Translations under genes and position numbers: made by a program | The notes under the pieces: generated by a model | Seen by the model: the letters and a program-made list of their open reading frames with translations, nothing else | The model's database searches: none | Told to the model about the DNA's origin: nothing | From: an uncultured Thiotrichales bacterium | GTDB lineage: Bacteria; Pseudomonadota; Gammaproteobacteria; UBA4575 | Direction of reading: 5' to 3' | NCBI GenBank assembly: GCA_964636225.1 | Contig: CAZWQM010000005.1 | Location: forward strand, 40,668-104,667 | Length of the DNA stretch: 64,000 bases | In this document: positions 1-54,674 of the stretch, piece after piece | How the letters are laid out: every line of letters begins with the position of its first letter | Numbering within the stretch: position 1 is the first letter of the stretch

Positions 1-645
1 CGTCGCCGAAGTTGTAACCACTTCATCAAAAATTGTCACTTCTTCATAATCAATTTTTTTGACTAAGCTAAATGCATCGCGTACATTTTTTATGCGCTGC
101 ATTTTTGATTTACCGATTTGTGTCTCGGTATATCTCGTTCTTTGCAGGCAATTAAAATCATAATCAAAGTTTATGTATTTACTGTACAATCGGATTAGCT
201 CATACACAGCATTAAACCCCCTTTGCCTGATACGTGCAGGATGACTTGGAACCGGAATCACCAGGCTCGATGTACACACATCAAAAAATTGTTTTAACGA
301 TAGCTGGATTAACGTATGCGCATGCTCCCAGTGATTAAAGTACTTATAACCCGTAATGAGTTGATCGATAGGTGCTCGATACCAGAATGTAGCTTTGAGT
401 GAGACATAGAACGCAGGAAGAGCCTGACAGGCACCACATATTTTGATTTCACTTCGAGACGCCATAAGGGGTAATCCACAAACCACACATACCTGACTTT
501 CTGCGCACCAGGGAAGATATTGTTTACAGGGCGGACATATACCAAGCTGACCTTTATCGATGCTTCCACACAGGCAACACCCCCAAGGGTAAATTGACCT
601 GGTCAAGTTAGTCCCTAACTTGTAAAATTTACTGATGTTATTCAT
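1..645 (-). CDS. ComF/GntX-family protein (double zinc ribbon plus phosphoribosyltransferase domain); the C-terminus runs off the window start
   Basis: My manual minus-strand translation from the ATG at 643-645 is open to position 1. It gives MNNISKFYKLGTNLTRSIYPWGCCLCGS...PVPSHPARIRQRGFNAVYEL...RTRYTETQIGKSKMQRIKNVRDAF...FDEVVTTSAT. These are the CxxC pairs and PRTase motifs of the ComF family. The ORF-track call 309..569 is in a different frame. The gene diverges from bioB, as in many gammaproteobacteria. Confidence 0.7.
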   Translation of the reverse strand, partial: MNNISKFYKLGTNLTRSIYPWGCCLCGSIDKGQLGICPPCKQYLPWCAESQVCVVCGLPLMASRSEIKICGACQALPAFYVSLKATFWYRAPIDQLITGYKYFNHWEHAHTLIQLSLKQFFDVCTSSLVIPVPSHPARIRQRGFNAVYELIRLYSKYINFDYDFNCLQRTRYTETQIGKSKMQRIKNVRDAFSLVKKIDYEEVTIFDEVVTTSAT

Positions 646-2844: not shown

Positions 2845-3570
2845 TCACATAAGCCCATGTTCCGCCATAGAAAAGGTTTCTTCTCCAACAATGATGTGAT
2901 CTAGTACATGCACATCAATTAAGTTTAGTGCCTGATTTATTTTATGAGTAATCTATTTATCAGCTTCACTTGGCTGGTAGTTTCCCGAAGGATGATTGTG
3001 CGCAAGAATTACTTTCGCAGTATTGGTTCTTAACACCAACTTGACGATCTCACGGGGATACACACTTGCATTATTAATCCTGCCTTTAAACAATTCTTCA
3101 TAGCGGATTAACTGGTTCCGTGTATCCAGCAGCAAGCATGCAAATACCTACGAGGTGTAATCACGCATTTTCGATAATAAAAATCTTGCTGCCTGTTTTG
3201 AACTAGTGAATTCAGGTTTTGACTCCAGTTGTTGCATCAGACTACGCTGTGCAATCGTACTTATCGCTAAAATCTGAGTGAATTTTGCCGGCCCAAGCCC
3301 TTTGATAGCCCGTAATTGTTCACTCTCACATTTCAGCAGACCACGAATACCACCAAATTGATCCAGTAATTCCTGTGCCAGTTCAAGCACACTTTTTCCT
3401 GCCAGTCCGGTTCTTAAAATAATGGCCAAAAGCTCTGCATCGGATAATATCTCCGCACCCTCCTTAATGAGTCTCTCACAAGGGCCATTTTTTGTGACCA
3501 ATTTTGTTTCATTGACTATAAAAAACTGAAGTCGGGTACACGCCGAAAGGATTGATTCTGGTACACTCAT
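2845..3570 (-). pseudogene. radC: radC (JAB/MPN-domain DNA repair protein) interrupted by two in-frame TAG codons
   Basis: ORFs 3148..3570 and 2953..3135 are in the same frame. Reading through TAG (3148-3150) and TAG (2953-2955) gives continuous RadC-like sequence: ...[106 protein letters not shown]. The HNHPSG (JAMM) motif and C-terminal tail are conserved. Confidence 0.75.
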
Positions 3571-4808
3571 TTTCCATGAAACTTACAAACAAGCATATTC
3601 TTGTCGCCGTTACTGGTGGTATCGCTGCCTACAAGTCTGCCGAATTTGTTCGGGCGCTACAAAGGGCAGGTGCACAAGTGCGTGTAGTCATGACAGAAAG
3701 TGCGACAAAATTTGTCACGCCATTGACCTTTCAGGCCCTTTCAGGTTATCCGGTACATGCCGCCGATAATGGCCAGTTCGACAAGTCCGGCATGGACCAT
3801 ATCGCGCTTGCACGTTGGTCCGATGCCATCATTGTGGCGCCTGCCACCGCGAATATCATTGCTAAAATTAGTCACGGCGTTGCAGATAATTTTGTCAGTT
3901 CCCTGTGTCTTGCTCACCAGGGTCATTTAGCCGTAGCCCCCGCTATGAATCAGGCTATGTGGAAAAATATCGCCAGCCAGAACAATATTGCCGCGCTGAA
4001 AGAAAGAGGTATAAAAGTCTTTGGTCCCGCACAGGGTGTTCAGGCCTGTGGCGAAACAGGTGAAGGCAGAATGCTTGAACCCAATGATTTGACACAGCTG
4101 TGTATTTCATTATTTCCCAATCATTCCCTAACAGGTAAAAAAGTCGTGATTACAGCGGGCCCTACGCAGGAAGCGATCGACCCGGTGCGATTTATCAGTA
4201 ATCGTTCCTCAGGAAAAATGGGTTACGCAATTGCGCAAGCCGCACTGGAGGCCGGTGCCGATGTCACTGTGATTACCGGTCCTACCCATTTACACAAAAA
4301 TGATCGTATTCATTACGTGAATGTGGAATCTTCTCAGCAAATGCATGCTGCTACATTGGCTAATTGTGCAAATGCCGATTTATTTATTGCGGCAGCGGCA
4401 GTGGCAGACTACCGACCGAAAAATATTTCTATGCAAAAAGTTAAAAAACATGATGAAAATTTTTCACTAAAGCTCACTCGCACTGCAGATATTTTAAAAG
4501 ATGTGAAGCAGGCTTATGCCCGCCTTTTCTGTGTAGGCTTTGCTGCCGAAACAGAAAACATTATTGAAAACGCTTTAACAAAATTGCGTAATAAATCACT
4601 TAATATGATTATCGCCAATCAGGTAGGCCTGCCTGATCAGGGTTTTGACAGTGACTATAATGCTATTGAGATAATTACAGAGAATAGTGTGATATCAATT
4701 GGTCGTGCTCGCAAAGCAGAGCTAGCCCGACAAATAATCGAAAATATTTCTAAACAACTCAAACTGGATACACCCCAAACTAATGTCACTTACATCCAAC
4801 CCAAATAA
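3552..4808 (+). CDS. coaBC: Bifunctional phosphopantothenoylcysteine decarboxylase / phosphopantothenate-cysteine ligase
   Basis: 418 aa with a flavoprotein N-domain plus a CoaB domain. It is divergent from radC, matching the E. coli dfp-radC arrangement. The true start may be the internal [10 protein letters not shown]. Confidence 0.9.
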
Positions 4809-11104: not shown

Positions 11105-11861
11105 TGTTTGGCTTTATTCACAAAAAATTTTATTTCTCTTTATTTATCGTTCTAAGTTTACTTTTTTTTATAGCCTGACGCCCGTTTATGCTGGCTGGTT
11201 TGATAAAATCAAAGATGTCATCAATTCAGAATCATCAAGCTCTACGTCAAGTACATCCCTCACTGACAATGAAATTGCGGATGCATTAAAAGAAGCGCTC
11301 AGTGTAGGTTCCAGTAATGTAGTCAGTCAGCTTAGTGCTCCAGGTGGATTTAATCTGGATTCAAATATACATATTCCTTTACCGGAATCGTTGCAAACTG
11401 TGCAGAAAACTATGAACAAATTCGGCATGGGAAGCTCGTTAAACAATCTTGAAAACAAATTGAACGAAGCAGCCGAAATCCCCACCGAAAAAGCTAAACC
11501 TTTATTTCTAGATGCGATTAAGCAAATGACGTGGAGTGATGTAAAATCTATTTTGAATGGACCGGATGATGCAGCGACTCAATATTTCAAGGGGAAAATG
11601 TCATCACCTTTAACCGCCGAAATGTAGCCCATAGTAGACAACAGTTTGAGCGAAGTAGGCTCAATTAATACATATAATGATGTTATGGGTAAATATAAAT
11701 CTTTGCCTTTGGTGCCGGATGTTCAGGCAGATTTGAGTCAGCATGTTTTAAGCAAAGGTATCGATGGAATATTCTATTATCTGGCCAAAGAGGAAAAAGC
11801 AATTAGAGATAATCCGGCTAAAAGAACAACCGATTTATTGAAAAAAGTTTTTGCAAAATAG
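11104..11861 (+). pseudogene. DUF4197-family periplasmic protein, disrupted by a frameshift at a T8 tract and an in-frame TAG
   Basis: The ATG at 11104 encodes a signal-peptide-like MFGFIHKKFYFSLFIVLSLLFFIA and then stops. The next frame continues from the T8 run (11162-11169) as ...YSLTPVYAGW...DNEIADALKEALSVGSSNVVSQL..., which is DUF4197-like. This runs into ORFs 11391..11627 and 11646..11861, which share a frame and are split only by TAG at 11625-11627 (...PLTAEM*PIVDNSLSEVGS...). Confidence 0.65.
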
Positions 11862-14788: not shown

Positions 14789-17215
<2,427 letters not shown>

Positions 17216-17234
17216 TTAGTAAGTGAAAGAATGA

Positions 17235-18308
17235 TTATACCACCGATGAAACACATCCATGTTTCACGTGGAACCATTTTATTGGTTGATCTAGGCACTT
17301 CATTGCTTCTCTTGATAGAGCAGTAATAATGATTTGGGAATCTAACTGAGCTAATATCTCCAAAGCAATCTGTGTCTGTTTTGCATCCAGCTCAGCCTGT
17401 AGCTCATCGACTAAATATACTATGGATTTGCCATATTTCTGCTTAATGGTTTTTGCCTGCGCCAATTTTAGTGCAATCGCCATCATTTTCTGCTGACCAC
17501 GTGAACTGGTCTTTGCAAAAAGCTTTCCATTCCAGCTGATTTTAAGATCGCCCCGATGGGGACCGACTTGTGTAAATAATGACAGATCATCTGACCTTAG
17601 CTCGTTATCCAGCGCTACTTTAAGCCCAAGTCTTGAATCCCAACCTGGCGTATATTCCAATCTAATGCTTTGTGTAAAACCAAAAAGGGTTAATATTTCA
17701 TTCACTCGGGGTACGATTTCTAGACAATAATTCGATATTTGCTTGGAAATCGCTTCCCCATGGTCGGCCAGAGTGTGATGCCAATGTTTTGCTTGAGAAA
17801 TATTACGAGTTTTCAAACAGAAATTTCTCTGCTTGACCGCCTTTGAATATTCACTCCACATTTTGGAAAACCCTTGTTCCACGTGGAACACACCCCAATT
17901 AAGAAACTTACGTCGTTCTGACGGACCAGAAGTAACGAGCAAATAGGATTCCGGGTGAATATCAAGTACTGGCAGGCTTTTTGCGAGCTCGGACCAGCCT
18001 GAAGTCGTCTCACGGTTTAAGCGCAGTTCTTTCTCTGAAGAAGAGGATATACGCACGCCTAATTGGGAAGTGTTTCCTAGATTAACGACTTCTCCATACA
18101 GGGTCAGCATTGAGGCATCATGGTGGGTGACATTTACTAATGAGCTGGTACGAAAACTTTTACCGCAGCTGAGTACGTGGATTCCTTCCAGTATGCTGGT
18201 TTTGCCAGCACCATTTTCCCCGAATAGAACATTAATTCCATGCGAAAACGAAATTTCACATTGTTTGAATGAACGCAGCCCCTCTGCCTGCAATTTTTGC
18301 AACCACAT
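17235..18308 (-). CDS. recF: DNA replication and repair protein RecF
   Basis: 357 aa SMC-like ABC ATPase (GENGAGKTSILE). Confidence 0.93.
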   Translation of the reverse strand: MWLQKLQAEGLRSFKQCEISFSHGINVLFGENGAGKTSILEGIHVLSCGKSFRTSSLVNVTHHDASMLTLYGEVVNLGNTSQLGVRISSSSEKELRLNRETTSGWSELAKSLPVLDIHPESYLLVTSGPSERRKFLNWGVFHVEQGFSKMWSEYSKAVKQRNFCLKTRNISQAKHWHHTLADHGEAISKQISNYCLEIVPRVNEILTLFGFTQSIRLEYTPGWDSRLGLKVALDNELRSDDLSLFTQVGPHRGDLKISWNGKLFAKTSSRGQQKMMAIALKLAQAKTIKQKYGKSIVYLVDELQAELDAKQTQIALEILAQLDSQIIITALSREAMKCLDQPIKWFHVKHGCVSSVV

Positions 18309-18321
18309 CTTAGCGATAGGA

Positions 18322-19416
18322 TTACAGCCGCATAGGCATCACGACATATTTTCGGTTTTCAATTTCAGGTGAAATAATAAGAAGACTGCTGTTTGTATCC
18401 TGAAGATAAAAATGTACTTCATTTGAATGGATAGTATTTAGCACATCTACCAGATAGCTGACATTGAAGCCTATTTCGAGATCCGGACCGCTGTAAGAAA
18501 TATCCAGTTCTTCTTCTGCCTCTTCTTGTTCTGGATTATGTGCTTGAATTTTAAGTATATTTTCAGAGAAACCTAGCCGTACACCACGATACTTTTCATT
18601 ACTGAGAATAGATACACGCATTAAACATGCACGCAGTATTTCACGTTCAATGCTGGCGATATATTGATGTCCCTCAGGAATCACACGTTGATAATCGGGG
18701 AATTTTCCATCAATTAGTTTTGTAACAAAACGTATGTCTCCAAAAGTTGCTTGTAAGTGGTTTTGACTAAAAGCCAGCTCCACCCGACTGCTGGCAGCCG
18801 ATAATATTCGCATAAATTCCTGCACTGCCTTTTTGGGTACAATCACCTGCCGGTCTTCTGCAGAATCTTCCAAAGGAGTGTCAGCGATAGAAAGACGATG
18901 TCCGTCCGTAGCAACTGCGCGCAAATGTCCTCCCTCTGATTCCATCATTAATCCATTCAGATAGTAACGAACATCCTGTTGCGCCATTGCAAAAGAAGTA
19001 TCTTCGATTAAGGAATGTAATTGATCTTTATCGATCGAAATGGTTTGGTCGACAGCAATTTCATCCACTAGGGGAAATTCACTGGCAGCGAGCGTTGCAA
19101 GTGAAAATCGGCTTTTAGCTGATTTGATTTCAACTTTTTCACCCGAACAGGAAAAGTGAATATCATTGCCTTCGGGCAAAGACTTACAAATATCCAGTAA
19201 TTTTCGTCCGGGTACAGTAATGGGATCACCGTCTGGTTCTATATCAATAGTGGCTGAAACTTCCAGCTCCAGGTCGGTCGCAGTAATGACTAACCTTCCA
19301 TTGACATTTCTGAGCAGAAAGTTGGAAAGAATTGGCATGGTTTGTCTACGTTCAACTGCACCAATTATCAGCTGGACAGGTTTGAGTAATTCTTCTCTTT
19401 GAATATTGAACTTCAT
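18322..19416 (-). CDS. dnaN: DNA polymerase III beta sliding clamp
   Basis: 364 aa with three beta-clamp domains and an N-terminus like E. coli DnaN (MKFNIQREELLKPVQ). Confidence 0.95.
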   Translation of the reverse strand: MKFNIQREELLKPVQLIIGAVERRQTMPILSNFLLRNVNGRLVITATDLELEVSATIDIEPDGDPITVPGRKLLDICKSLPEGNDIHFSCSGEKVEIKSAKSRFSLATLAASEFPLVDEIAVDQTISIDKDQLHSLIEDTSFAMAQQDVRYYLNGLMMESEGGHLRAVATDGHRLSIADTPLEDSAEDRQVIVPKKAVQEFMRILSAASSRVELAFSQNHLQATFGDIRFVTKLIDGKFPDYQRVIPEGHQYIASIEREILRACLMRVSILSNEKYRGVRLGFSENILKIQAHNPEQEEAEEELDISYSGPDLEIGFNVSYLVDVLNTIHSNEVHFYLQDTNSSLLIISPEIENRKYVVMPMRL

Positions 19417-19630
19417 TTCTTTTAATAATATTTTTTTAATTTAAAACATTGTTATTATTAGCTAGATACTTTTCTGTGGATATCGATAAATAATATATAA
19501 TATTCAGTAGGTTAAATATATAACAAGCTGTTGATAACTTATTTGTAAGAGACAACACCTTAGTATTCTTTTTCGTCGGACCTGTCAGGTTAAAGTTAAC
19601 CAAATTATATAAACAGGTTTTCCACAAGTT
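19417..19630. promoter_or_regulatory. AT-rich dnaA-dnaN spacer with DnaA-box-like 9-mers; candidate oriC / DNA-unwinding region and dnaN promoter
   Basis: The 214 bp spacer is very AT-rich. It contains TGTGGATAT (19475-19483, complement of ATATCCACA), TGTTGATAA (19529-19537, complement of TTATCAACA) and TTTTCCACA (19618-19626). Each is within 1-2 mismatches of the TTATCCACA consensus. Confidence 0.4.
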
Positions 19631-20968
19631 TTAGTTACTTAGTATACGTAATAGATTTACATATTCGTCATTTATTTTAACGTCACTTTGCCTCAATTCC
19701 TTGGTTTTTCTACACGCATGTAGCACTGTTGTATGATCCCGGCCACCAAAGGCATCACCTATTTCTGGCAGACTGTGATTAGTCACTTCTTTTGCTAACG
19801 CCATGGCAATTTGTCTTGGGCGCGTGATTGAGCGCGTGCGGCGAGAGGAGTTTAAGTCCGAAATGCGTATTTTGTAATACTCGGCGACCGTTTTCTGAAT
19901 ATTTTCGATCGTGACCAGCTTTTCCTGCAAAGTAATCAAGTCGTGCAGAGCTTCCTTGGCAAAGTCTAAAGTGATGGGCTTGCCTTTAAACTGTGAATTG
20001 GCGAGGACACGGCGCAAAGCACCTTCGAGTTCTCGAATGTTTGAACGAATCCGTTTGGCAATGAAAAAGGCGACATCATGAGGGAGATTCACATTTACCG
20101 CTTCAGCCTTACTTTGCATAATGGCTACCCGGGTTTCCAGTTCAGGTGGTTCAATGGCTTGTGACAGACCCCAGCCAAAACGAGATTTAAGTCTTTCTTC
20201 CAGACCATCCAGCTCTTTGGGGTAACGGTCACAAGTCATAATGATTTGCTGCTGGCCTTCCATAAGTGCATTAAATGTGTGAAAAAACTCTTCTTGTGAG
20301 CGCTCCTTGCCTGCGAAAAATTGGATATCATCTATTAAAAGAGCGTTAACTGAACGATAATGTCGCTTAAATTCGTCGATCGCGTTATGTTGCAAGGCTT
20401 TAACCATATCTTGCACAAAACGCTCGGAGTGAAGATACACAACTTTGGCCTCGGGATTCAGCGCCAGTATCTGATTACCGATGGCATGCATTAAGTGTGT
20501 TTTACCCAGACCTACGCCGCCATACAGTAAAAGCGGGTTATAGGCTTTTCCTGAATTATTAGCGACTTGAACGGAAGCTGCCTTTGCCAGTTCATTGGAT
20601 TTACCCTCAACGAAACTATCAAAAGTAAAGTCACGATTCAGATTATGAGTATAGGCTCGATTAGTGGATGCAGCCGGGGGTTGCGGCGACATCGGGGTTG
20701 CCACGCTAGATGGGGGAATTTGTCGACTACCTACACTAATCGATACCTGATTAAGACCTGCCTCTTTACCAATCGACTGGACCAGCTGACGAATTCGTTC
20801 CAAGTAGTGGTCGTTGACCCAATCCAGCACAAATCGATTGGGAGCTAGTAATGTCAGCATTTGATTATGTTGCTCGGCCTGTAAAGGTCGAATCCAGGTA
20901 TTAAGTAACTGTTCTGTGAGCTCGGACTCGAGCTGGCGGACACATAAATTCCAAACAGGACTAGACAT
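19631..20968 (-). CDS. dnaA: Chromosomal replication initiator DnaA
   Basis: 445 aa with an AAA+ domain ([16 protein letters not shown]) and a C-terminal DNA-binding domain. Confidence 0.97.
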
Positions 20969-21073
20969 TAGGCTTTCGGTTCGTTGAGTAGAAGTTGAGG
21001 ATTAAATTATTCGGCAGACCATAGTCAAAATATTATAATATCCGACCCTAGGACTGAAACAGCATTATAATCG

Positions 21074-21102
21074 TTGACAAAGCGGCATCTGGCAATTAAT
21101 GT
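21074..21102 (+). promoter_or_regulatory. Sigma-70-type promoter for rpmH-rnpA (TTGACA-N17-TAATGT)
   Basis: TTGACA at 21074-21079, a 17-nt spacer and TAATGT at 21097-21102. It lies about 45 bp upstream of the rpmH start. Confidence 0.45.
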
Positions 21103-21146
21103 TTCCGCCCCCTAACATATACAACCATCGAAACTAGGTATTTGCT

Positions 21147-21281
21147 GTGAAAAGGACGTTTCAACCAAGTAATTTACGCCGTGCACGTACGCATGGGTTT
21201 AGAGCACGCATGAAAACACGTGGTGGACGTGCGGTTATTCGAGCGCGACGCGCACGTGGTAGAGCCCGTCTTTGTCCATAA
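21147..21281 (+). CDS. rpmH: 50S ribosomal protein L34
   Basis: It is not in the ORF track because it has a GTG start. Translation gives [44 protein letters not shown]. Confidence 0.9.
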
Positions 21282-21284
21282 CAG

Positions 21285-21650
21285 TTGTGTAGTAAGCCCG
21301 CATCTAATCGATTTACCAAGCAGGATCGGCTGTTATCTTCCAATGAATTTGAAGCCGTATTTGACAAACCTGTCAAGTCTGCAGATTCCGCCTATACAAT
21401 TCTTGCTCGAGCCAATCAATTACCGGGCCCCAGACTGGGTGTTATTGTTAGCAAAAAAAATGTTCCAGGGGCCGTTGGCAGAAATCGATTAAAGCGTATT
21501 GTTCGAGAAAGTTTTCGTACCCATAAAAATATTATTGGCCCCTTTGACGTAATAGTAATATGTAAGAAAAATAGTGCGAATATTATTAATTCGTCTCTTT
21601 TGAAAAAACTGCAAAGGCACTGGAAATTTTTAAATACACATGCTGAATAA
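21285..21650 (+). CDS. rnpA: RNase P protein component
   Basis: 121 aa. [12 protein letters not shown]...[27 protein letters not shown] aligns with the E. coli RnpA RNR motif region. Probable TTG start 4 nt after rpmH. Confidence 0.85.
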
Positions 21651-21873
21651 AATTTTCATAGGAATAATTCGATTCTATCAGCTGTGTATCAGCCCAATGT
21701 TAGGTCCGCGCTGTCGATTTACACCCACCTGTTCTCAATATGCAGTCGAAGCGATTCAGACTTATGGCGTACTTAAAGGCATGTATCTGGGCATTCGAAG
21801 AATTTCTAAGTGTCATCCTTTCCATGCAGGTGGATACGACCCCGTGCCGGAAAAACTCATGGATAAAAGCTAA
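21640..21873 (+). CDS. yidD: Membrane protein insertion efficiency factor YidD
   Basis: 77 aa with conserved YQ..ISP..G..CRF.PTCSQYA. Confidence 0.85.
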
Positions 21874-23540
21874 TGGATAATCAACGTTTTTTCTTATACA
21901 TCTCGCTGTTACTGGTTTCCTATATATTATGGAGTAACTGGTCAGGTGAAAATGCACCTGTGGTTGAACAGCAGGTAGAAGAGCAACGTGCGGATAATTC
22001 CAACATCGGTAATAAAAATGATGTACCTGAGTCCGCAGCGCAGACACGTGCGCCGGCAAATCTCACTTCCGCACCAATCAATAATGACACCCGTGTAGAA
22101 AATGAATATGTGGTGGTTGAAACTGATATATTTAGTCTACATATAAATACACGTGGTGCAGATATACATGAAGCGGAACTTAAAACTTATCCTGTTGATA
22201 TTAAGCATAAAGACCAACCACTGGTATTGCTCGAGGATGACGGTAAAATCTACATAGCTCAGTCAGGCTTATTACATGATCGAATTGGCGATGTGGATGT
22301 CAGTACACTGGCGCCAAATCATCATGATATCTATAGTGCTGAGAACAATAAGTACGTGCTGATGCCCGGGCAGGATGATCTTGTTGTACCTTTTCAGTGG
22401 CAAAGCGCTAACGGTGTCACTGTCACAAAAACCTATCACTTCAAGCGCAGCAAGTTTCTGGTTGAAGTCGATTACAAAATTTCAAATCAAGGTCAGCAGG
22501 AATGGGTTGGTCGACAGTATCGTCAACTGCGACATGGTTATGTTAGTGGACAAAAAAGTTTTCTGCGTTTGCCGACTTATACCGGGGGCGCCTATTATGA
22601 TACCAAGTATGAAAAAATATCCTTTGATGATATGGCAGAGGAACCCCTGGCAAAAGAAGTTACAGGTGGTTGGGCAGCCATGTTGCAACATTATTTCTTC
22701 TCTGCATGGCTAGCGGAAGAATTTGAAACAAACTATTACTATACGAATGTAGTGAAAAACGCAGTGGGAAATGATTACATTATAGGTCTGCGTTCAGAAC
22801 CAATAAAAATCGCACCAGGTGAAACGGCAGAATTTAAAAGTCGTTTATACATGGGGCCAAAATTACAGAAGAGAATCGAGAAAATACAGCCTGGGCTGGA
22901 GTTGACAACAGATTATGGAATGTTGACCCCATTAAGTAAGCCATTATTCTGGTTGCTGGATTTCATTCATGGCTACGTAAAAAACTGGGGTTGGTCAATT
23001 ATTCTGCTGACATTATTGATTAAGCTGGCATTTTTCCGCCTGTCTGCATCAAGCTATAAATCAATGGCAAGAATGCGCAAGGTCCAGCCTAAAATGGTGG
23101 CTCTGCGTGAGCGATATGCTGACGACAAACAAAAATTAAACACGGCTATGTGGGATCTTTACAAGAAGGAAAAAATTAATCCTCTTGGTGGCTGTTTACC
23201 GATCCTGATACAAATGCCGGTATTCCTGGCGTTGTACTGGGTACTAATAGAAAGTGTAGAGATGCGCCACGCACCATTTATGTTCTGGATACACGATCTA
23301 TCATCCAAAGACCCATTATTTATTCTGCCAGTGCTGATGGGGATCTCTATGTTTATTCAGTTTAAACTGAACCCAAAACCACCCGATCCCATGCAGGAAA
23401 AAATATTCATGATCATGCCAGTGTTTATGTCGGGCTTTATGGCGTTTTTCCCCGCCGGACTGGTTTTATACTGGTTCGTGAATAATTTACTTTCCATCGG
23501 TCAGCAGTGGTACATTACGCGTAAATATGCTGACGCATAA
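21873..23540 (+). CDS. yidC: Membrane protein insertase YidC
   Basis: 555 aa with an N-terminal transmembrane segment, a periplasmic domain and the conserved C-terminal five-transmembrane core. Confidence 0.95.
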   Translation: MDNQRFFLYISLLLVSYILWSNWSGENAPVVEQQVEEQRADNSNIGNKNDVPESAAQTRAPANLTSAPINNDTRVENEYVVVETDIFSLHINTRGADIHEAELKTYPVDIKHKDQPLVLLEDDGKIYIAQSGLLHDRIGDVDVSTLAPNHHDIYSAENNKYVLMPGQDDLVVPFQWQSANGVTVTKTYHFKRSKFLVEVDYKISNQGQQEWVGRQYRQLRHGYVSGQKSFLRLPTYTGGAYYDTKYEKISFDDMAEEPLAKEVTGGWAAMLQHYFFSAWLAEEFETNYYYTNVVKNAVGNDYIIGLRSEPIKIAPGETAEFKSRLYMGPKLQKRIEKIQPGLELTTDYGMLTPLSKPLFWLLDFIHGYVKNWGWSIILLTLLIKLAFFRLSASSYKSMARMRKVQPKMVALRERYADDKQKLNTAMWDLYKKEKINPLGGCLPILIQMPVFLALYWVLIESVEMRHAPFMFWIHDLSSKDPLFILPVLMGISMFIQFKLNPKPPDPMQEKIFMIMPVFMSGFMAFFPAGLVLYWFVNNLLSIGQQWYITRKYADA

Positions 23541-23542
23541 CG

Positions 23543-24868
23543 GTGTCAACAACTGAAACTATTTGTGCGCTGGCAACTCCAAATGGGAATGCCAGCGTCG
23601 CAGTCATCCGCATCTCTGGCCCAGACGCGCACAAAGTTGCAAACCAACTTACGCATATAACGTTAAAGCCGCGCTATGCTCATTTTTCAGTATTTTATAA
23701 CCTGCAAAATGAAGCGCTTGATCAGGGCCTGGTTATTTATTTTAAGGGACCCAACTCGTTTACCGGCGAAGATGTAGTTGAACTTCACCCGCATGGTAAT
23801 CCATATGTCTGTCAGCAAATAATTCACTGCCTAAATAAACTGGGCATAAGGTTGGCTTTGCCAGGGGAGTTCAGTGAACGCGCCTTTCTTAATGGAAAAC
23901 TGGACCTGACTCAACTTGAAGCTATTGCCGATCTTATTACCAGCGGTTCAGAACAGGCTGCAAAATCAGCTGTACAATCCATGCAAGGAAAATTTTCGCA
24001 GCAGATACAAATAATTCTGGATCAACTCATTCAAATAAGAACTCACATAGAGGCGTCACTGGATTTTTCAGAAGAGGATATAGAAACAGAAACCCGAGAC
24101 AGCGTAAGCAGTAAACTGTCCTCTTTAATGTTGCAGCTTAGAAAAGTATTTGAGCTGGCAGAAAAGGGCGCACAACTGCAGAAAGGTTTTAGCGTGGTTT
24201 TAATGGGCCGACCCAATGTTGGCAAGTCTTCACTATTTAATATGCTATGTGCACAAGATCGCGCAATAGTAACGAATATTCCTGGCACGACGCGGGATAT
24301 TATCTCCATTGATATGCAGTTAAACGGTGTGTCTATACGCTTATTAGATACTGCCGGCATTCGAGATGATGCCGGACAAGTGGAAAAAGAGGGTATTCAG
24401 CGTGCACAATCCGCGATAGAAACTTCCGATGCCGTTATTCATGTCATCGACGGAACCGAGTTATCCTCTAAAGTAGAAGACTTCAAGCGACAAGCGAATG
24501 AAATTACCGTTATTAATAAATGCGATCTGTTGCCCGAAGGATTTAAAGTGCCAGCGGGCACCTTATTAATATCCGCAAAAACAGGGCAGGGATTGGAAAG
24601 CTTAACGGAAAAAATTCAACACCTATTACATATACAACCACAGGATGTTGAAGCGCCATTTTCAGCCAGAGTGCGACATTTGGATGCACTTTCTCGGTGT
24701 CATGTACATCTTGATTTGGCTCACAAGCAAATTATTGATACACATCCACTAGAGCTGGCGGCGGAAGAATTACGCGTGTCACAACAGATATTGGGTGAAA
24801 TAACAGGCGAATTTACTCCGGATGACTTGCTGGATTATGTATTCCGCGAATTTTGTATCGGCAAGTAA
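23543..24868 (+). CDS. mnmE: tRNA modification GTPase MnmE
   Basis: 441 aa with a G-domain (GRPNVGKSSLFN) and a C-terminal CIGK. Confidence 0.95.
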   Translation: MSTTETICALATPNGNASVAVIRISGPDAHKVANQLTHITLKPRYAHFSVFYNLQNEALDQGLVIYFKGPNSFTGEDVVELHPHGNPYVCQQIIHCLNKLGIRLALPGEFSERAFLNGKLDLTQLEAIADLITSGSEQAAKSAVQSMQGKFSQQIQIILDQLIQIRTHIEASLDFSEEDIETETRDSVSSKLSSLMLQLRKVFELAEKGAQLQKGFSVVLMGRPNVGKSSLFNMLCAQDRAIVTNIPGTTRDIISIDMQLNGVSIRLLDTAGIRDDAGQVEKEGIQRAQSAIETSDAVIHVIDGTELSSKVEDFKRQANEITVINKCDLLPEGFKVPAGTLLISAKTGQGLESLTEKIQHLLHIQPQDVEAPFSARVRHLDALSRCHVHLDLAHKQIIDTHPLELAAEELRVSQQILGEITGEFTPDDLLDYVFREFCIGK

Positions 24869-24926
24869 GCAGCAGTGCGGTATCATTTCTGATCAGATAT
24901 AAATTAATTTTAGTTAAATCAAAACA

Positions 24927-26840
24927 ATGCAACACGAATTTGATGTCATAGTAGTGGGCGGGGGACACGCCGGCACAGAAGCAGCACTGGCTTCTGCGCG
25001 CATGGGTGTGCGCACGCTTTTATTGACCCAGAATATCGAAACCATTGGTCAGATGAGTTGCAACCCGGCCATTGGCGGCATTGGCAAGAGTCATTTAGTG
25101 CGTGAAATTGATGCCATGGGGGGCGTCATGGCGACTGCGGCTGACCGAGCGGGCATCCAGTTCAGAGTGTTGAATCAACGCAAAGGCCCGGCAGTACGTG
25201 CAACACGTGCACAAACGGATCGGTCTTTATATCGTCAAGTGATTCGTTCGGTAGTCGAAAACCAGCCAAATCTGTCTGTCTTTCAGCAGGAAGTGGACGA
25301 TCTGATTGTAGAACAGGGTCGGGTCAAGGGAGTTTTGACTCGCATGGGGCTTAGTTTTAAAGCTTCTGCCGTGATACTTACGGTGGGTACATTTCTTGGT
25401 GGAAAAATTTTTGTTGGTCCTCAAACCTATCAGGCGGGGAGAGCTGGAGATGCTGCCTCCATTCGCCTGGCTGATCGGCTGCGAGAACAACCGCTTGATG
25501 TCGATCGGCTGAAAACCGGAACACCGCCGCGCATCGATGGGCGCTCGATTGATTATTCAAAAATGGAAATTCAGCCAGGTGACGAACCACGGCCGGTATT
25601 TTCTTTTATGGGTTCGCGTGATCAACATCCTCAACAAGTGAATTGTCACATCACTTACACCAATTCGAAAAGCCACGACATCATTCGCGATTCGATGCAT
25701 GAGTCGCCTATGTACAGCGGCGCGATAAAAGGAATCGGTCCGCGCTATTGCCCATCTATTGAAGACAAGGTCACTCGATTTGCGGATCGTGAACGCCATC
25801 AGGTATTTATTGAGCCGGAAGGATTACACACTCATGAAGTGTATCCGAATGGTATTTCAACCAGTCTGCCTTATGAAGTGCAATTGAACATGGTGCACAC
25901 TATCGCAGGTTTGGAAAACTGTCATATCACACGTCCTGGCTATGCAATTGAATATGACTTCTTTAATCCAACCGGCTTACAGTCCAGTCTGGAAACAAAG
26001 TCATTAACAGGATTGTTTTTTGCCGGGCAAATTAATGGCACTACAGGATATGAAGAAGCCGCCGCACAGGGTTTAATGGCCGGAATTAATGCAGCACGTG
26101 CAGTACTAAATGAAGAGCCCGTAATACTGCGCCGTGACCAGGCCTATATCGGTGTAATGATTGATGACCTGGTAACTCGCGGAACGCAGGAACCCTACCG
26201 CATGTTTACCAGCCGCGCAGAGTATCGATTAATGCTACGTGAAGATAATGCCGATTTGCGTTTAACGCCGCTGGCTCACGATCTTGGCTTGGTCGACGAA
26301 GTTCGATGGGCGCGCTTTTGCTGGAAACAGGAGGCCATCTTAAAAGAACAAGCCAGACTGGATAAAACTTTCGTTCAGGCGGTTCACTTAACCGAAGAGC
26401 AGGGTATTCGTTTATTTGGCAGTAAAATTGAACGTGAGTACAGTATGTCCAATCTGTTAAAGCGCCCGGAAGTCAGCTACGCAACATTTTCTGGGCTGGA
26501 TAAATATGCGCCTTATATACAAGATGAAGAAGTTATAGAACAAATCAATATTCAGGCGAAATACGCTGGCTATATGCAACGTCAAACGGCGGAAATAGAA
26601 AAAACCAAACGCCTTGAGGATACTCGTATACCGGATAGTTTTGATTATTATCTGGTAAAAGGCTTATCCAATGAGGTGTTGCAAAAACTCACTGCCATAA
26701 AACCCAAAACAGTTAGCCAGGCGTCCAGAATTTCTGGTGTGACACCCGCGGCCGTATCCTTGTTGCTGGTACATTTAAAAGCACGCCATTCGTTGCTTAA
26801 TAATTCCTTTCAGGAATCCAGGGCCGCCCAGGATAGCTGA
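24927..26840 (+). CDS. mnmG: tRNA uridine 5-carboxymethylaminomethyl modification enzyme MnmG (GidA)
   Basis: 637 aa with an FAD-binding N-terminus ([16 protein letters not shown]). Confidence 0.95.
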
Positions 26841-26871
26841 GCTCTCAGTTGATATAAGCTGCCTGATCTAA

Positions 26872-27489
26872 ATGGAAACTCGCCAATACCTGGATGCCGC
26901 AGCCAGGCAGTTAAATACTCTATTGACGGGAACACAACTGGACAGCCTGCTAAACTATCTTGAAATGATAAAAAAATGGAACCGCGCTTATAATCTTGTT
27001 GGCACATCAAGTACCGATGAATTATTGCAAAAGCATATTCTGGACAGTTTATCGATCATGCAATTCATCCAAATGTCGCCCGTGCTGGATGTCGGCAGTG
27101 GCGCTGGCTTGCCAGGTATTCCTTTAGCTATTGCTTTACCTGACATATCATTCACTTTACTGGATTCAAATGGAAAAAAAGCCCGATTCATGCGCCAGGT
27201 AGCTCTGGAGCTTAAACTAGACAATGTAGAAGTTGTGCAGACACGAGTAGAAAACTATCACCCCGATGCCGCACCCAGGACAGTAATGTCACGCGCGTTT
27301 GCGCCACTTGAAAAAGCCCTGCAAAGCATGACTAGTGTGTGCGCACCACTCGGCCAGGTACTAATCATGCTGGGGACAAAGCCGATACAGCAGCCATCAC
27401 ATAACGCGATTAAGCGTTTGCAAATAAGCTCTATCAATCTTCCGGGGCTGGATTCACAACGTCACCTCTTAATTGCTGACAAAGTATGA
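26872..27489 (+). CDS. rsmG: 16S rRNA (guanine527-N7)-methyltransferase RsmG (GidB)
   Basis: 205 aa SAM methyltransferase (LDVGSGAGLPGIPLAI). Confidence 0.9.
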   Translation: METRQYLDAAARQLNTLLTGTQLDSLLNYLEMIKKWNRAYNLVGTSSTDELLQKHILDSLSIMQFIQMSPVLDVGSGAGLPGIPLAIALPDISFTLLDSNGKKARFMRQVALELKLDNVEVVQTRVENYHPDAAPRTVMSRAFAPLEKALQSMTSVCAPLGQVLIMLGTKPIQQPSHNAIKRLQISSINLPGLDSQRHLLIADKV

Positions 27490-28280
27490 TCAATATGTCC
27501 AGAATGATTGCGATTACGAATCAAAAAGGCGGGGTAGGTAAAACGACGACCACGGTTAACCTGGCAGCATCCCTGGCCGCAGCTAAAAGAAAAGTGTTAC
27601 TTGTGGATCTGGATCCACAGGGAAATGCCACCAGCGGTTCTGGTGTTGACAAGAGTAGTCTGGAGAAAACCGTGGCTCATGTTCTGCTGGAACAGGAAGC
27701 TATTAATGAATGCATCGTCAGCAGTGAAAGTGCGGGATACGATGTACTGCCCGCGAACGAACAATTAACAAGTGCCGAAGTTGGTTTGCTTGAAGCGCGC
27801 GGTAGAGAATTTAAACTGCGTCGAGCACTTGAAGAAGTCAGAAATAAATATGACTACATATTAATTGATAGTCCGCCTTCACTAAACATGCTCACTGTAA
27901 ATGGGTTGGTCGCTGCAAAAAGTGTCATAATTCCTACTCAATGTGAGTACTATGCATTGGAAGGCTTGTCTGCCTTGCTGGGAACAATTGAGAGAGTGAG
28001 ACAAACCGCGAATCCCGAACTACAGGTCGAAGGCGTGCTGCGAACCATGTTTGATCCACGAAATAACCTTGCCAACGATGTATCGTCTCAACTAACCAGT
28101 CATTTTGGTGACAGTGTTTATCGTACAATTATTCCCCGAAACGTCACTTTGGCAGAAGCCCCAAGTCACGGACTACCTGTGATTCGATATGATAAAGGTT
28201 CGCGAGGTTCTCTTGCATATATCGCTTTGGCCGGAGAAATGCTGAGACGGGAAGAAGCAGCGATGCAGCCAGGAGCATAA
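27486..28280 (+). CDS. parA: Chromosome partitioning ATPase ParA/Soj
   Basis: 264 aa with Walker A KGGVGKTT. It is upstream of parB in the gidAB-parAB arrangement. Confidence 0.9.
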   Translation: MINMSRMIAITNQKGGVGKTTTTVNLAASLAAAKRKVLLVDLDPQGNATSGSGVDKSSLEKTVAHVLLEQEAINECIVSSESAGYDVLPANEQLTSAEVGLLEARGREFKLRRALEEVRNKYDYILIDSPPSLNMLTVNGLVAAKSVIIPTQCEYYALEGLSALLGTIERVRQTANPELQVEGVLRTMFDPRNNLANDVSSQLTSHFGDSVYRTIIPRNVTLAEAPSHGLPVIRYDKGSRGSLAYIALAGEMLRREEAAMQPGA

Positions 28281-28284
28281 AATA

Positions 28285-29178
28285 ATGAGTGGTCAAAAAA
28301 AGCGTAAAGGACTGGGAAATCTGGGGGTCGATATACTTTTATCTACCCCTGTTGATGCTGTTCCGAGCAAACAATCTACCCAGACTGATTCGGAGTTACA
28401 GTATATCGCTGTCGACCTGGTTGATAGAAGCCCCTATCAACCGCGTCAGACTATCACCGAAGAAGGAATTAGCGAGTTAGCGGAGTCGATACGTAGTCAA
28501 GGGTTGATTCAGCCCATAGTGGTACGCAAAACGGCGCATCGATTTGAGCTGATCGCCGGCGAAAGACGCTGGCGAGCTGCGCAAAAGGCCGGTCTTGATG
28601 AGATTCCGGCAGTAATCAAAGAAGTCAACGATGAATCGGCTGCCGCCATGGCCTTGATAGAGAATCTGCAGCGTGAGAATCTGAATCCTATCGAAGAGGC
28701 ATTTGCGATTTCCAACCTGACCAAAGAATTTAACTGGACCCATCAGGAAGTGGCCGATGTACTTGGTAAAGCACGTGCCACCATCAGTAATATGTTGCGG
28801 CTACTGGAGTTGCCCAGTGAAGCGCGCGAATTAATTAAACAAAATACACTTTCTATGGGGCACGCACGTGCATTGCTTGCCCTGCCACAAAATCAGCAGA
28901 ATGCTATGGCTCAAAGCGTTGTGGCAAAAAACTTGAGTGTTCGACAAACTGAACAGGCGATTCGCAAAATACTTAGCGAAGCAGGCCGGCATGTGGCCGT
29001 GCCAAGAAAAGACCCCAACATCCAAAATTTGGAAAATCTTATTGCTGACACACTTGGCGCCGCGGTTACCATCAAACAAAGCGCGCAATCAAATAAAGGC
29101 AGAATTGAGATTCAATACAACAATCTGGATGAACTCGATGGCATATTGCGCAAACTTGGTGCGCAAACCAGCCTCTAA
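28285..29178 (+). CDS. parB: Chromosome partitioning protein ParB
   Basis: 297 aa with a ParB box (GERRWRAAQ) and a helix-turn-helix. Confidence 0.9.
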   Translation: MSGQKKRKGLGNLGVDILLSTPVDAVPSKQSTQTDSELQYIAVDLVDRSPYQPRQTITEEGISELAESIRSQGLIQPIVVRKTAHRFELIAGERRWRAAQKAGLDEIPAVIKEVNDESAAAMALIENLQRENLNPIEEAFAISNLTKEFNWTHQEVADVLGKARATISNMLRLLELPSEARELIKQNTLSMGHARALLALPQNQQNAMAQSVVAKNLSVRQTEQAIRKILSEAGRHVAVPRKDPNIQNLENLIADTLGAAVTIKQSAQSNKGRIEIQYNNLDELDGILRKLGAQTSL

Positions 29179-53787: not shown

Positions 53788-54467
53788 GTCGTTTCGTGTT
53801 GATTTTATGAAAAGCCGAGATTGTACCGCGTAAAAGCATGAATACGAGTATTTTTTCTGAATAGTCGTTAGTCTGAACGTAAAAATCCGGTTCTGTCATA
53901 CGAGTGTTTTAGGATCTGCCTGTAGACATCCATGTCCTGGCAGATTTCATCCTGAAACAAAAGATCATCCGTGAAATCTCAAGTCATTCGCCTAATTTAC
54001 CTTCCCTGATAAATTACGCTCTCCCTGAGCTTGAGTCTTGACTTCATTATTCCTTATACACTGCCCTAAAGTTGAACATTCTGTTTAACACTCTAGGTTG
54101 GGGCATCCTTGCCGAAGTACTGCTGGACTGAATTCCAATGAAGATTTCATTGTAAAGTCACGGCATGCATACACGAATGAAAGCACAGCAAGGGCTATGC
54201 CAATTTTGAATTGGTTGGTCTTCTGTATCTTGTTAACTAATTGATAAAATTAAAAATATAGATAACGAAAGGCTAAATTCAGAAGATAAACGTGTTATTG
54301 TAATCGTTTGTATTTGGGGGAGAAGCCAATCACGTTTAGCCATTTACTGACGCTATTTGACAATTTGTGGCGCTATAGATGACAGCGTGGGCAATTTACT
54401 TTATAAGAGCACTGCTTGGGAGCAAAAATTGTTTTTAGTTATTGCGGGGCAATAAATATGTTCATAA

Positions 54468-54515
54468 TGCACCAAATATGTGCAAAATAATCTATAAATG
54501 CACAAAATTTGTGCA
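54468..54515 (+). promoter_or_regulatory. Two tandem NtrC (NRI) enhancer-like sites upstream of glnA
   Basis: TGCACCAAATATGTGCA (54468-54484) and TGCACAAAATTTGTGCA (54499-54515) both fit TGCACC-N5-GGTGCA-type dyads. Their centres are 31 bp apart, at about -126 and -95 from the predicted start. This matches the E. coli glnAp2 geometry. Confidence 0.55.
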
Positions 54516-54575
54516 TATCTGGCTGTTTACTTGTGGTGCAAGATGCTAACTATTTGAATTCCCTGCCTGATTATG

Positions 54576-54592
54576 TGGCACATATCATGCTT
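54576..54592 (+). promoter_or_regulatory. Sigma-54 (-24/-12) promoter of glnA
   Basis: TGGCACatatcaTGCTT has GG (54577-78) and GC (54589-90) separated by exactly 10 nt. It lies about 85 bp upstream of the glnA ATG. Confidence 0.6.
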
Positions 54593-54674
54593 AACACCGG
54601 TCACAATACAAAACAAGAATAAACTCGGCCTAATTACTGGGTATTCAAATTTTTTAAATAATAGGAGTTTCTAA

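Follow-up and report, generated by a model that had tools for sequence, protein, structure and literature searches.

A radC gene on the minus strand of the stretch of DNA analyzed here (the window; 64 kb, G+C content 43%) has lost its reading frame through two nonsense substitutions and a one-nucleotide deletion. Comparison with same-species contigs and with an intact syntenic orthologue indicates with high confidence that radC here is a genuine pseudogene of evolutionarily recent origin, in a lineage that shows gene decay at scattered loci. The features of the locus are the following.

2845-3512, minus strand: very probable radC pseudogene, bounded by the native ATG (3512-3510) and the natural TGA (2847-2845); a 222-codon HhH + JAB (RadC) protein after repair of three lesions
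3513-3575: 63-nt divergent spacer between radC (ATG 3512) and coaBC (ATG 3576), containing ATG 3570
3488-3493, minus strand: A6 homopolymer, shortened from the ancestral A7 by a 1-nt deletion that puts the native ATG out of frame
3478-3480, minus strand: R12C, TGT (Cys) for CGT (Arg12) in the near-invariant PRERL motif; a missense change of the window lineage
3148-3150, minus strand: first TAG, a nonsense codon in place of the near-invariant Glu122, where the JAB domain begins (context tcg TAG gta)
2953-2955, minus strand: second TAG, CAG>TAG (C>T) at a variable position, codon 187; lineage-specific (context aaa TAG att)

Family identity and native start of the radC locus

The minus strand from 3570 to 2845 reads as a frame of 241 codons that ends at the TGA at 2847-2845 and contains two internal TAG codons, both present where the initial annotation had placed them. 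With the stops masked, the conceptual translation matches UPF0758_N (PF20582, 5.7e-24) and the RadC JAB domain (PF04002, 1.9e-42, model positions 1-121 of 121) in Pfam, as well as the NCBIfam model PRK00024 'RadC family protein' with 251.9 bits against a cut-off of 180. The UPF0758_N HhH domain is followed by a full-length JAB domain, which is the domain order of the RadC family. Using the intact orthologue P0001 as the tblastn query, we obtained a single alignment that passes through both stops and covers residues 8-222 at 74% identity (E=3e-106). Given this alignment and the family matches, the similarity downstream of each stop is real and far above chance. The description of the sequence before, between and after the stops as RadC-like thus holds, and an alignment to homologues, in which a loss of downstream similarity would have spoken against that description, finds the similarity present. 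The JAB metal-binding motif H-x-H ... S-x-x-D is kept in the window allele, and its residues His172, His174, Ser182 and Asp185 are invariant in 23 orthologues. The conserved upstream glutamate of the JAB domain (Glu122) is replaced by TAG both in the window and in all sister contigs.

The frame from native start to natural stop is interrupted by a -1 frameshift at 3488-3493 in addition to the two TAG codons. Dozens of orthologues among 5.8 billion clustered proteins, nearly all of exactly 222 aa, cover 100% of the model starting MKQNWSQKNGPRERL..., and ATG 3512 encodes this MKQNWSQKNGPRERL... N terminus only when seven A's are present at 3488-3493. Two 121-aa proteins called on same-species contigs (P0128 and P0129) likewise begin MKQNWSQKNGPRERL. 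The start chosen in the initial annotation, ATG 3570, is only 5 nt away from the ATG of the divergent coaBC (3576), and the family matches begin only at residues 26-32 of the resulting ORF. We take ATG 3570 to be a spurious start and ATG 3512 to be the native one. Because of the A6 frameshift and the start at 3512, the first ~27 residues of that ORF (MSVPES...LVTK) are to be read as translated spacer and out-of-frame native N terminus and not as RadC. The radC-coaBC spacer is also 63 nt long in the sister contigs L029 and L030, and 62 nt between the called genes of the outgroup contig L028. A tblastn search found no second copy of radC within the 64-kb window.

Same-species contigs and the intact orthologue

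Contigs of the same species were found by exact look-up of BioF, the product of the neighboring gene, and of the truncated forms of RadC. They derive from runs SRR15213105, SRR15213108, SRR15927517, SRR15927518, SRR15927527 and SRR15927528 and from the ENA assemblies ERZ27257198, ERZ27257201, ERZ27275788 and ERZ27296344, a tally of about ten runs or assemblies in which the ERZ assemblies may reuse SRR reads, so that fully independent samples may number fewer than ten. We distinguish three radC haplotypes: the window type (the window, L001/L036 and L003), a common sister type (L002, L004 and L029-L034) that differs from the window type by about 1.4% across radC, and an intermediate type (L035).

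The nearest intact orthologue, P0001, is a 222-aa protein with 75% identity encoded on the 2.16-Mb contig L028, where the gene order argB - pmm - dut - coaBC - radC - bioF - bioB - comF - ubiA is identical. Intact radC orthologues thus occupy the syntenic position in relatives, and in the window, as in L028, radC is divergent from coaBC-dut; yicR of E. coli has the same arrangement. The interval 990-4730 of L028, between argB and pmm, is an insertion absent from the window that holds type I restriction-modification fragments (Methylase_S, N6_Mtase) and an IS1595-family transposase. No intact allele with more than 75% identity was found among the 5.8 billion clustered proteins, a search that rests on a protein database, though the 121- and 140-aa truncated products of this species are present there. 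The locus of the first TAG, searched with that codon left free, gave no match in JGI metagenome contigs. Among GTDB species genomes the RadC relatives are distant only (52% identity or less), and the nearest named RadC matches are unclassified Gammaproteobacteria MAGs.

Lesions of the window allele

Both TAG codons arose by substitution, in agreement with the initial annotation: the second is CAG in sister contigs, and the first aligns to GAG in the outgroup L028. The codon of the first TAG is invariant in every contig that covers it, across all three haplotypes, and its counterpart is Glu in all 23 aligned orthologues and in the RadC JAB domain structure PDB 2QLC. As TAG is found here in all contigs, with GAG in the outgroup and Glu in the orthologues, the first lesion was most likely a GAG>TAG change that took place before the haplotypes split. 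Judged by this distribution, the first TAG is the oldest lesion of radC and is common to all sampled haplotypes. The site of the second TAG is polymorphic, with CAG in L002, L004, L029, L030, L032 and L034 and TAG in the window, L001 and L003; the outgroup has CAA, and the alignment column is variable among orthologues (Q, L, K, E, D, H, C). Since the sister haplotype has CAG, we assign the second TAG to a later C>T change.

The reading of the locus as a perfectly conserved frame free of frameshifts does not stand. The A6 run, compared with A7, produces a -1 frameshift just past the native start, eight codons into the window radC, and the native frame from ATG 3512 now runs for 32 codons before it ends at 3414. 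The run is A7 in each of the nine sister contigs covering it, and the outgroup likewise has a nucleotide where the window lacks one. Only the window and L001/L036 (Logan assembly, run SRR15213105) have A6, and of the three lesions it has the weakest replication because the window and the SRR15213105 assembly may share reads. Transcriptional or ribosomal slippage on A6 that restores the frame was considered and set aside as moot, given the downstream stops; the run is also short. At the R12C site the window has T where all other contigs, including the outgroup, have C, and the window lineage carries one further derived missense change at 3080.

Divergence between haplotypes

With L028 as the outgroup for polarization, the derived changes of the sister haplotype are E21G, R154C in the invariant PRE motif, S182G at the invariant metal-site serine, where the sister protein would thus carry glycine, and S215T at a further invariant residue. 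A fifth change, L127F, falls at a near-invariant position where the outgroup base differs from both haplotypes and gives no polarization at the DNA level; we assign it to the sister lineage because the orthologues have Leu. This brings the sister lineage to five missense changes, of which four affect invariant or near-invariant residues.

Between the window and the sister contig L030, radC differs at 8 non-synonymous sites and 1 synonymous site (pN 0.0154). For the seven flanking genes (bioB, bioF, coaBC, dut, pmm, argB and DUF4124), the same comparison gives 8 non-synonymous and 20 synonymous differences (pN 0.0016, pS 0.0132, pN/pS 0.12), and the contrast between radC and its flanks is significant (Fisher's exact p=0.0023). 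Because the pN of radC (0.0154) about equals the pS of the flanking genes (0.0132), radC is drifting neutrally. This between-haplotype comparison refutes the claim that no drift had followed the nonsense hits; radC combines relaxed selection with independent secondary lesions in each haplotype. By halves, the N-terminal part of the gene differs between haplotypes by 2 missense changes, 1 synonymous change and the frameshift, and the C-terminal part by 5 missense changes and 1 nonsense change.

Six deviations at highly conserved columns, mostly conservative, are common to both haplotypes, as is one disabling lesion. From these few shared deviations and the single shared disabling lesion we infer that the inactivation of radC is not much older than the divergence within the species. 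The initial annotation had left three readings side by side, namely very recent inactivation, artefact and translational suppression, and had pointed to closely related genomes for comparison. That comparison, made here with the same-species contigs and L028, supports recent inactivation; the replication of the TAG codons excludes an artefact, and the polymorphic second TAG and the neutral rate make suppression very unlikely.

Other decaying genes and the surroundings in the window

Decay in this species extends to two further genes of the window.

11105-11861, plus strand: DUF4197 gene, read as a pseudogene; a predicted signal peptide then the full-length domain, with a T8 run and an in-frame TAG
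1-645, minus strand: comF, of the ComF family with a double zinc ribbon + phosphoribosyltransferase; runs off the end of the window; intact in the lineage of the window

The repaired translation of the DUF4197 gene matches its Pfam model at 1.7e-72 over positions 2-199 of 199. The run at 11162-11169 is T8, and T9 is needed to keep the predicted signal peptide in frame with the domain; an in-frame TAG follows at 11625-11627. The sister contig L037 has the same TAG, but with T7, another 1-nt deletion and three missense changes. As judged from these contigs, the DUF4197 gene is broken in all sampled strains. A search by sequence found no solved-structure relative of DUF4197. In the sister lineage, comF (L037 13049-13531; L002 4312-4793) carries a CGA>TGA change about 20 codons before its end, and L002 has an extra 1-nt deletion; the L028 orthologue is a 240-aa protein (PF18912). 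Within the window itself, 2 of roughly 65 genes are broken.

Elsewhere in the window, the interval 14789-29178 appears to span the chromosomal origin region, with genes assigned by ORF size, order and recognizable sequences only: gyrB-recF-dnaN-dnaA on the minus strand, and rpmH-rnpA-yidD-yidC-mnmE-mnmG-rsmG-parA-parB together with the atp operon on the plus strand. Ordinary small genes recognized by eye from their sequences (rpmH, yidD, thiS, a glutaredoxin gene and a DUF167 gene) fill the other gaps in the ORF map. The 887 nt between glyQ and glnA (53788-54674) contain no ORF, Rfam match or tRNA and are probably a regulatory region upstream of glnA.

Alternative explanations

If the TAG codons were decoded, by a suppressor tRNA, as pyrrolysine or through leaky termination, full-length RadC could still be made. 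Between codon 8 and the natural stop the frame indeed stays open and RadC-like, and all three nonsense codons in the two broken genes of the window are TAG, an outcome of about 3-5% under a neutral mutation model. The second TAG, though, is CAG in the sister haplotype and hence no conserved recoding site, the window allele has its native start out of frame, and radC evolves at the neutral rate, with the invariant Arg154, Ser182 and Ser215 replaced in the sister haplotype. The first TAG, confined to this species, replaces a glutamate that is near-invariant (23 of 23 orthologues), and common suppressors would not restore Glu at this position. Stop usage over the 60 ORFs of the window is TAA 44, TGA 9 and TAG 7; the ORFs that end in TAG have normal lengths and include bioB (317 codons, the same length as in L028) and three from the ATP synthase cluster. 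This ordinary use of TAG, at the end of 7 of the 60 ORFs, excludes global amber reassignment and bears out the earlier argument from the bioB terminator. Scans of the 64-kb window found no Rfam element and no tRNA gene. Known amber suppression and recoding systems (supE/supF-type tRNAs, pyrrolysine) have in common with this locus only an in-frame TAG within a conserved frame; here the second TAG is not conserved, TAG is an ordinary terminator, the downstream sequence is without constraint and the window holds no tRNA. Neither conservation of TAG among constrained relatives nor depletion of TAG as a terminator (7 of 60 ORFs), as recoding would entail, was found. We regard continued production of full-length RadC by this route as extremely unlikely. 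The excess of TAG was also considered as a hint of suppression and rejected as non-significant: the probability that a nonsense event yields TAG is about 0.30-0.36 each time in a mutation model on window codon usage, and although three of the four nonsense lesions in the species are TAG (two in radC, one in DUF4197), the fourth, in the sister comF, is TGA. We treat the excess as chance. A weak amber suppressor, present or recent, might have rendered TAG alleles in the dispensable radC and DUF4197 genes near-neutral and fixable; we hold this to be very doubtful, and if true, it would account for three of the four nonsense lesions being TAG.

The window belongs to a metagenome-derived contig and A6 is supported by one run only, both of which would fit a sequencing or assembly artefact, with sense codons at the lesion positions in the true genome. 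Against this, the first TAG recurs unchanged in three haplotypes and in contigs from about ten runs or assemblies, built with at least two assemblers (Logan and a k141 MEGAHIT-style one). The second occurs not only in the window but also in SRR15213105 and SRR15213108, which are separate runs, and gene callers on same-species contigs give truncated products of 121 and 140 aa. Replication across runs, assemblers and haplotypes excludes artefact for both TAG codons, and for the locus as a whole we consider it exceedingly improbable. A split but functional gene is also very unlikely, in our judgment. Here a 121-aa HhH fragment, possibly with a separate JAB fragment from TTG 3135, would keep some function, in keeping with the intact 121-codon ORF from the native ATG that the sister haplotypes retain and with the fewer between-haplotype changes in the N-terminal than in the C-terminal half. 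These counts are too small to show N-terminal constraint, however, and the window allele frameshifts the N-terminal ORF after 8 codons and alters Arg12 of the PRERL motif. A JAB fragment would also be without the conserved Glu122 strand and would meet a stop in the window allele or changes at invariant residues in the sister allele.

Discussion

The reading that we prefer, recent pseudogenization of radC, can be set out as a sequence of events. It began with a nonsense mutation at near-invariant Glu122, seen in all sampled members of the species and so placed before the haplotype split, for which GAG>TAG is the most parsimonious, though assigned, change. The locus then drifted neutrally. As the aligned contigs show, the window lineage acquired the 1-nt deletion in A7 past the native start, R12C and the CAG>TAG change, and the sister lineage its five missense changes, four at invariant or near-invariant residues. 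We infer that full-length RadC is not made and that at most a 121-residue HhH fragment would be translatable in the sister haplotypes. The loss was presumably tolerated since RadC is dispensable, and it would form part of a low-level, lineage-specific decay together with DUF4197 and the sister comF.

The window locus resembles the RadC/YicR family (PF20582 + PF04002; PRK00024) in domain order, in its 222-codon length and in the HNHPSG...PSxAD motif. It differs in that its frame is broken three times and its Glu122 codon is a stop. By descent it belongs to the family, as a pseudogene and not as a working member. Its history is textbook pseudogene formation, in which a point nonsense mutation is followed by homopolymer slippage and substitutions, and it is nothing new in kind. 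Among the repair genes lost in the reductive evolution of Rickettsia is radC (PMC1779305), and the present locus is like such young pseudogenes in that a dispensable repair- or competence-associated gene was hit by nonsense and homopolymer-indel mutations and then evolved neutrally, with secondary lesions that differ between sister lineages. Unlike in Rickettsia-type gene loss, decay here is sparse, coding density is high, the window contains no insertion sequences, and we see no sign of host restriction for this organism.

For annotation, the locus is best recorded as a radC pseudogene, frameshifted with internal stops, and not as a 140-aa protein. It provides a small, clean case in which contigs from other metagenomes date and order the lesions of a young pseudogene. 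The passage of PMC3239186 that cites Attaiech et al. 2008 ('RadC, a misleading name?') treats the RadC-type role in DNA repair as uncertain, and the decay described here adds evidence for the dispensability of RadC. In some bacteria, both radC and comF belong to competence regulons. A loss of natural competence might underlie their decay, which affects radC in every strain and comF in a single lineage.
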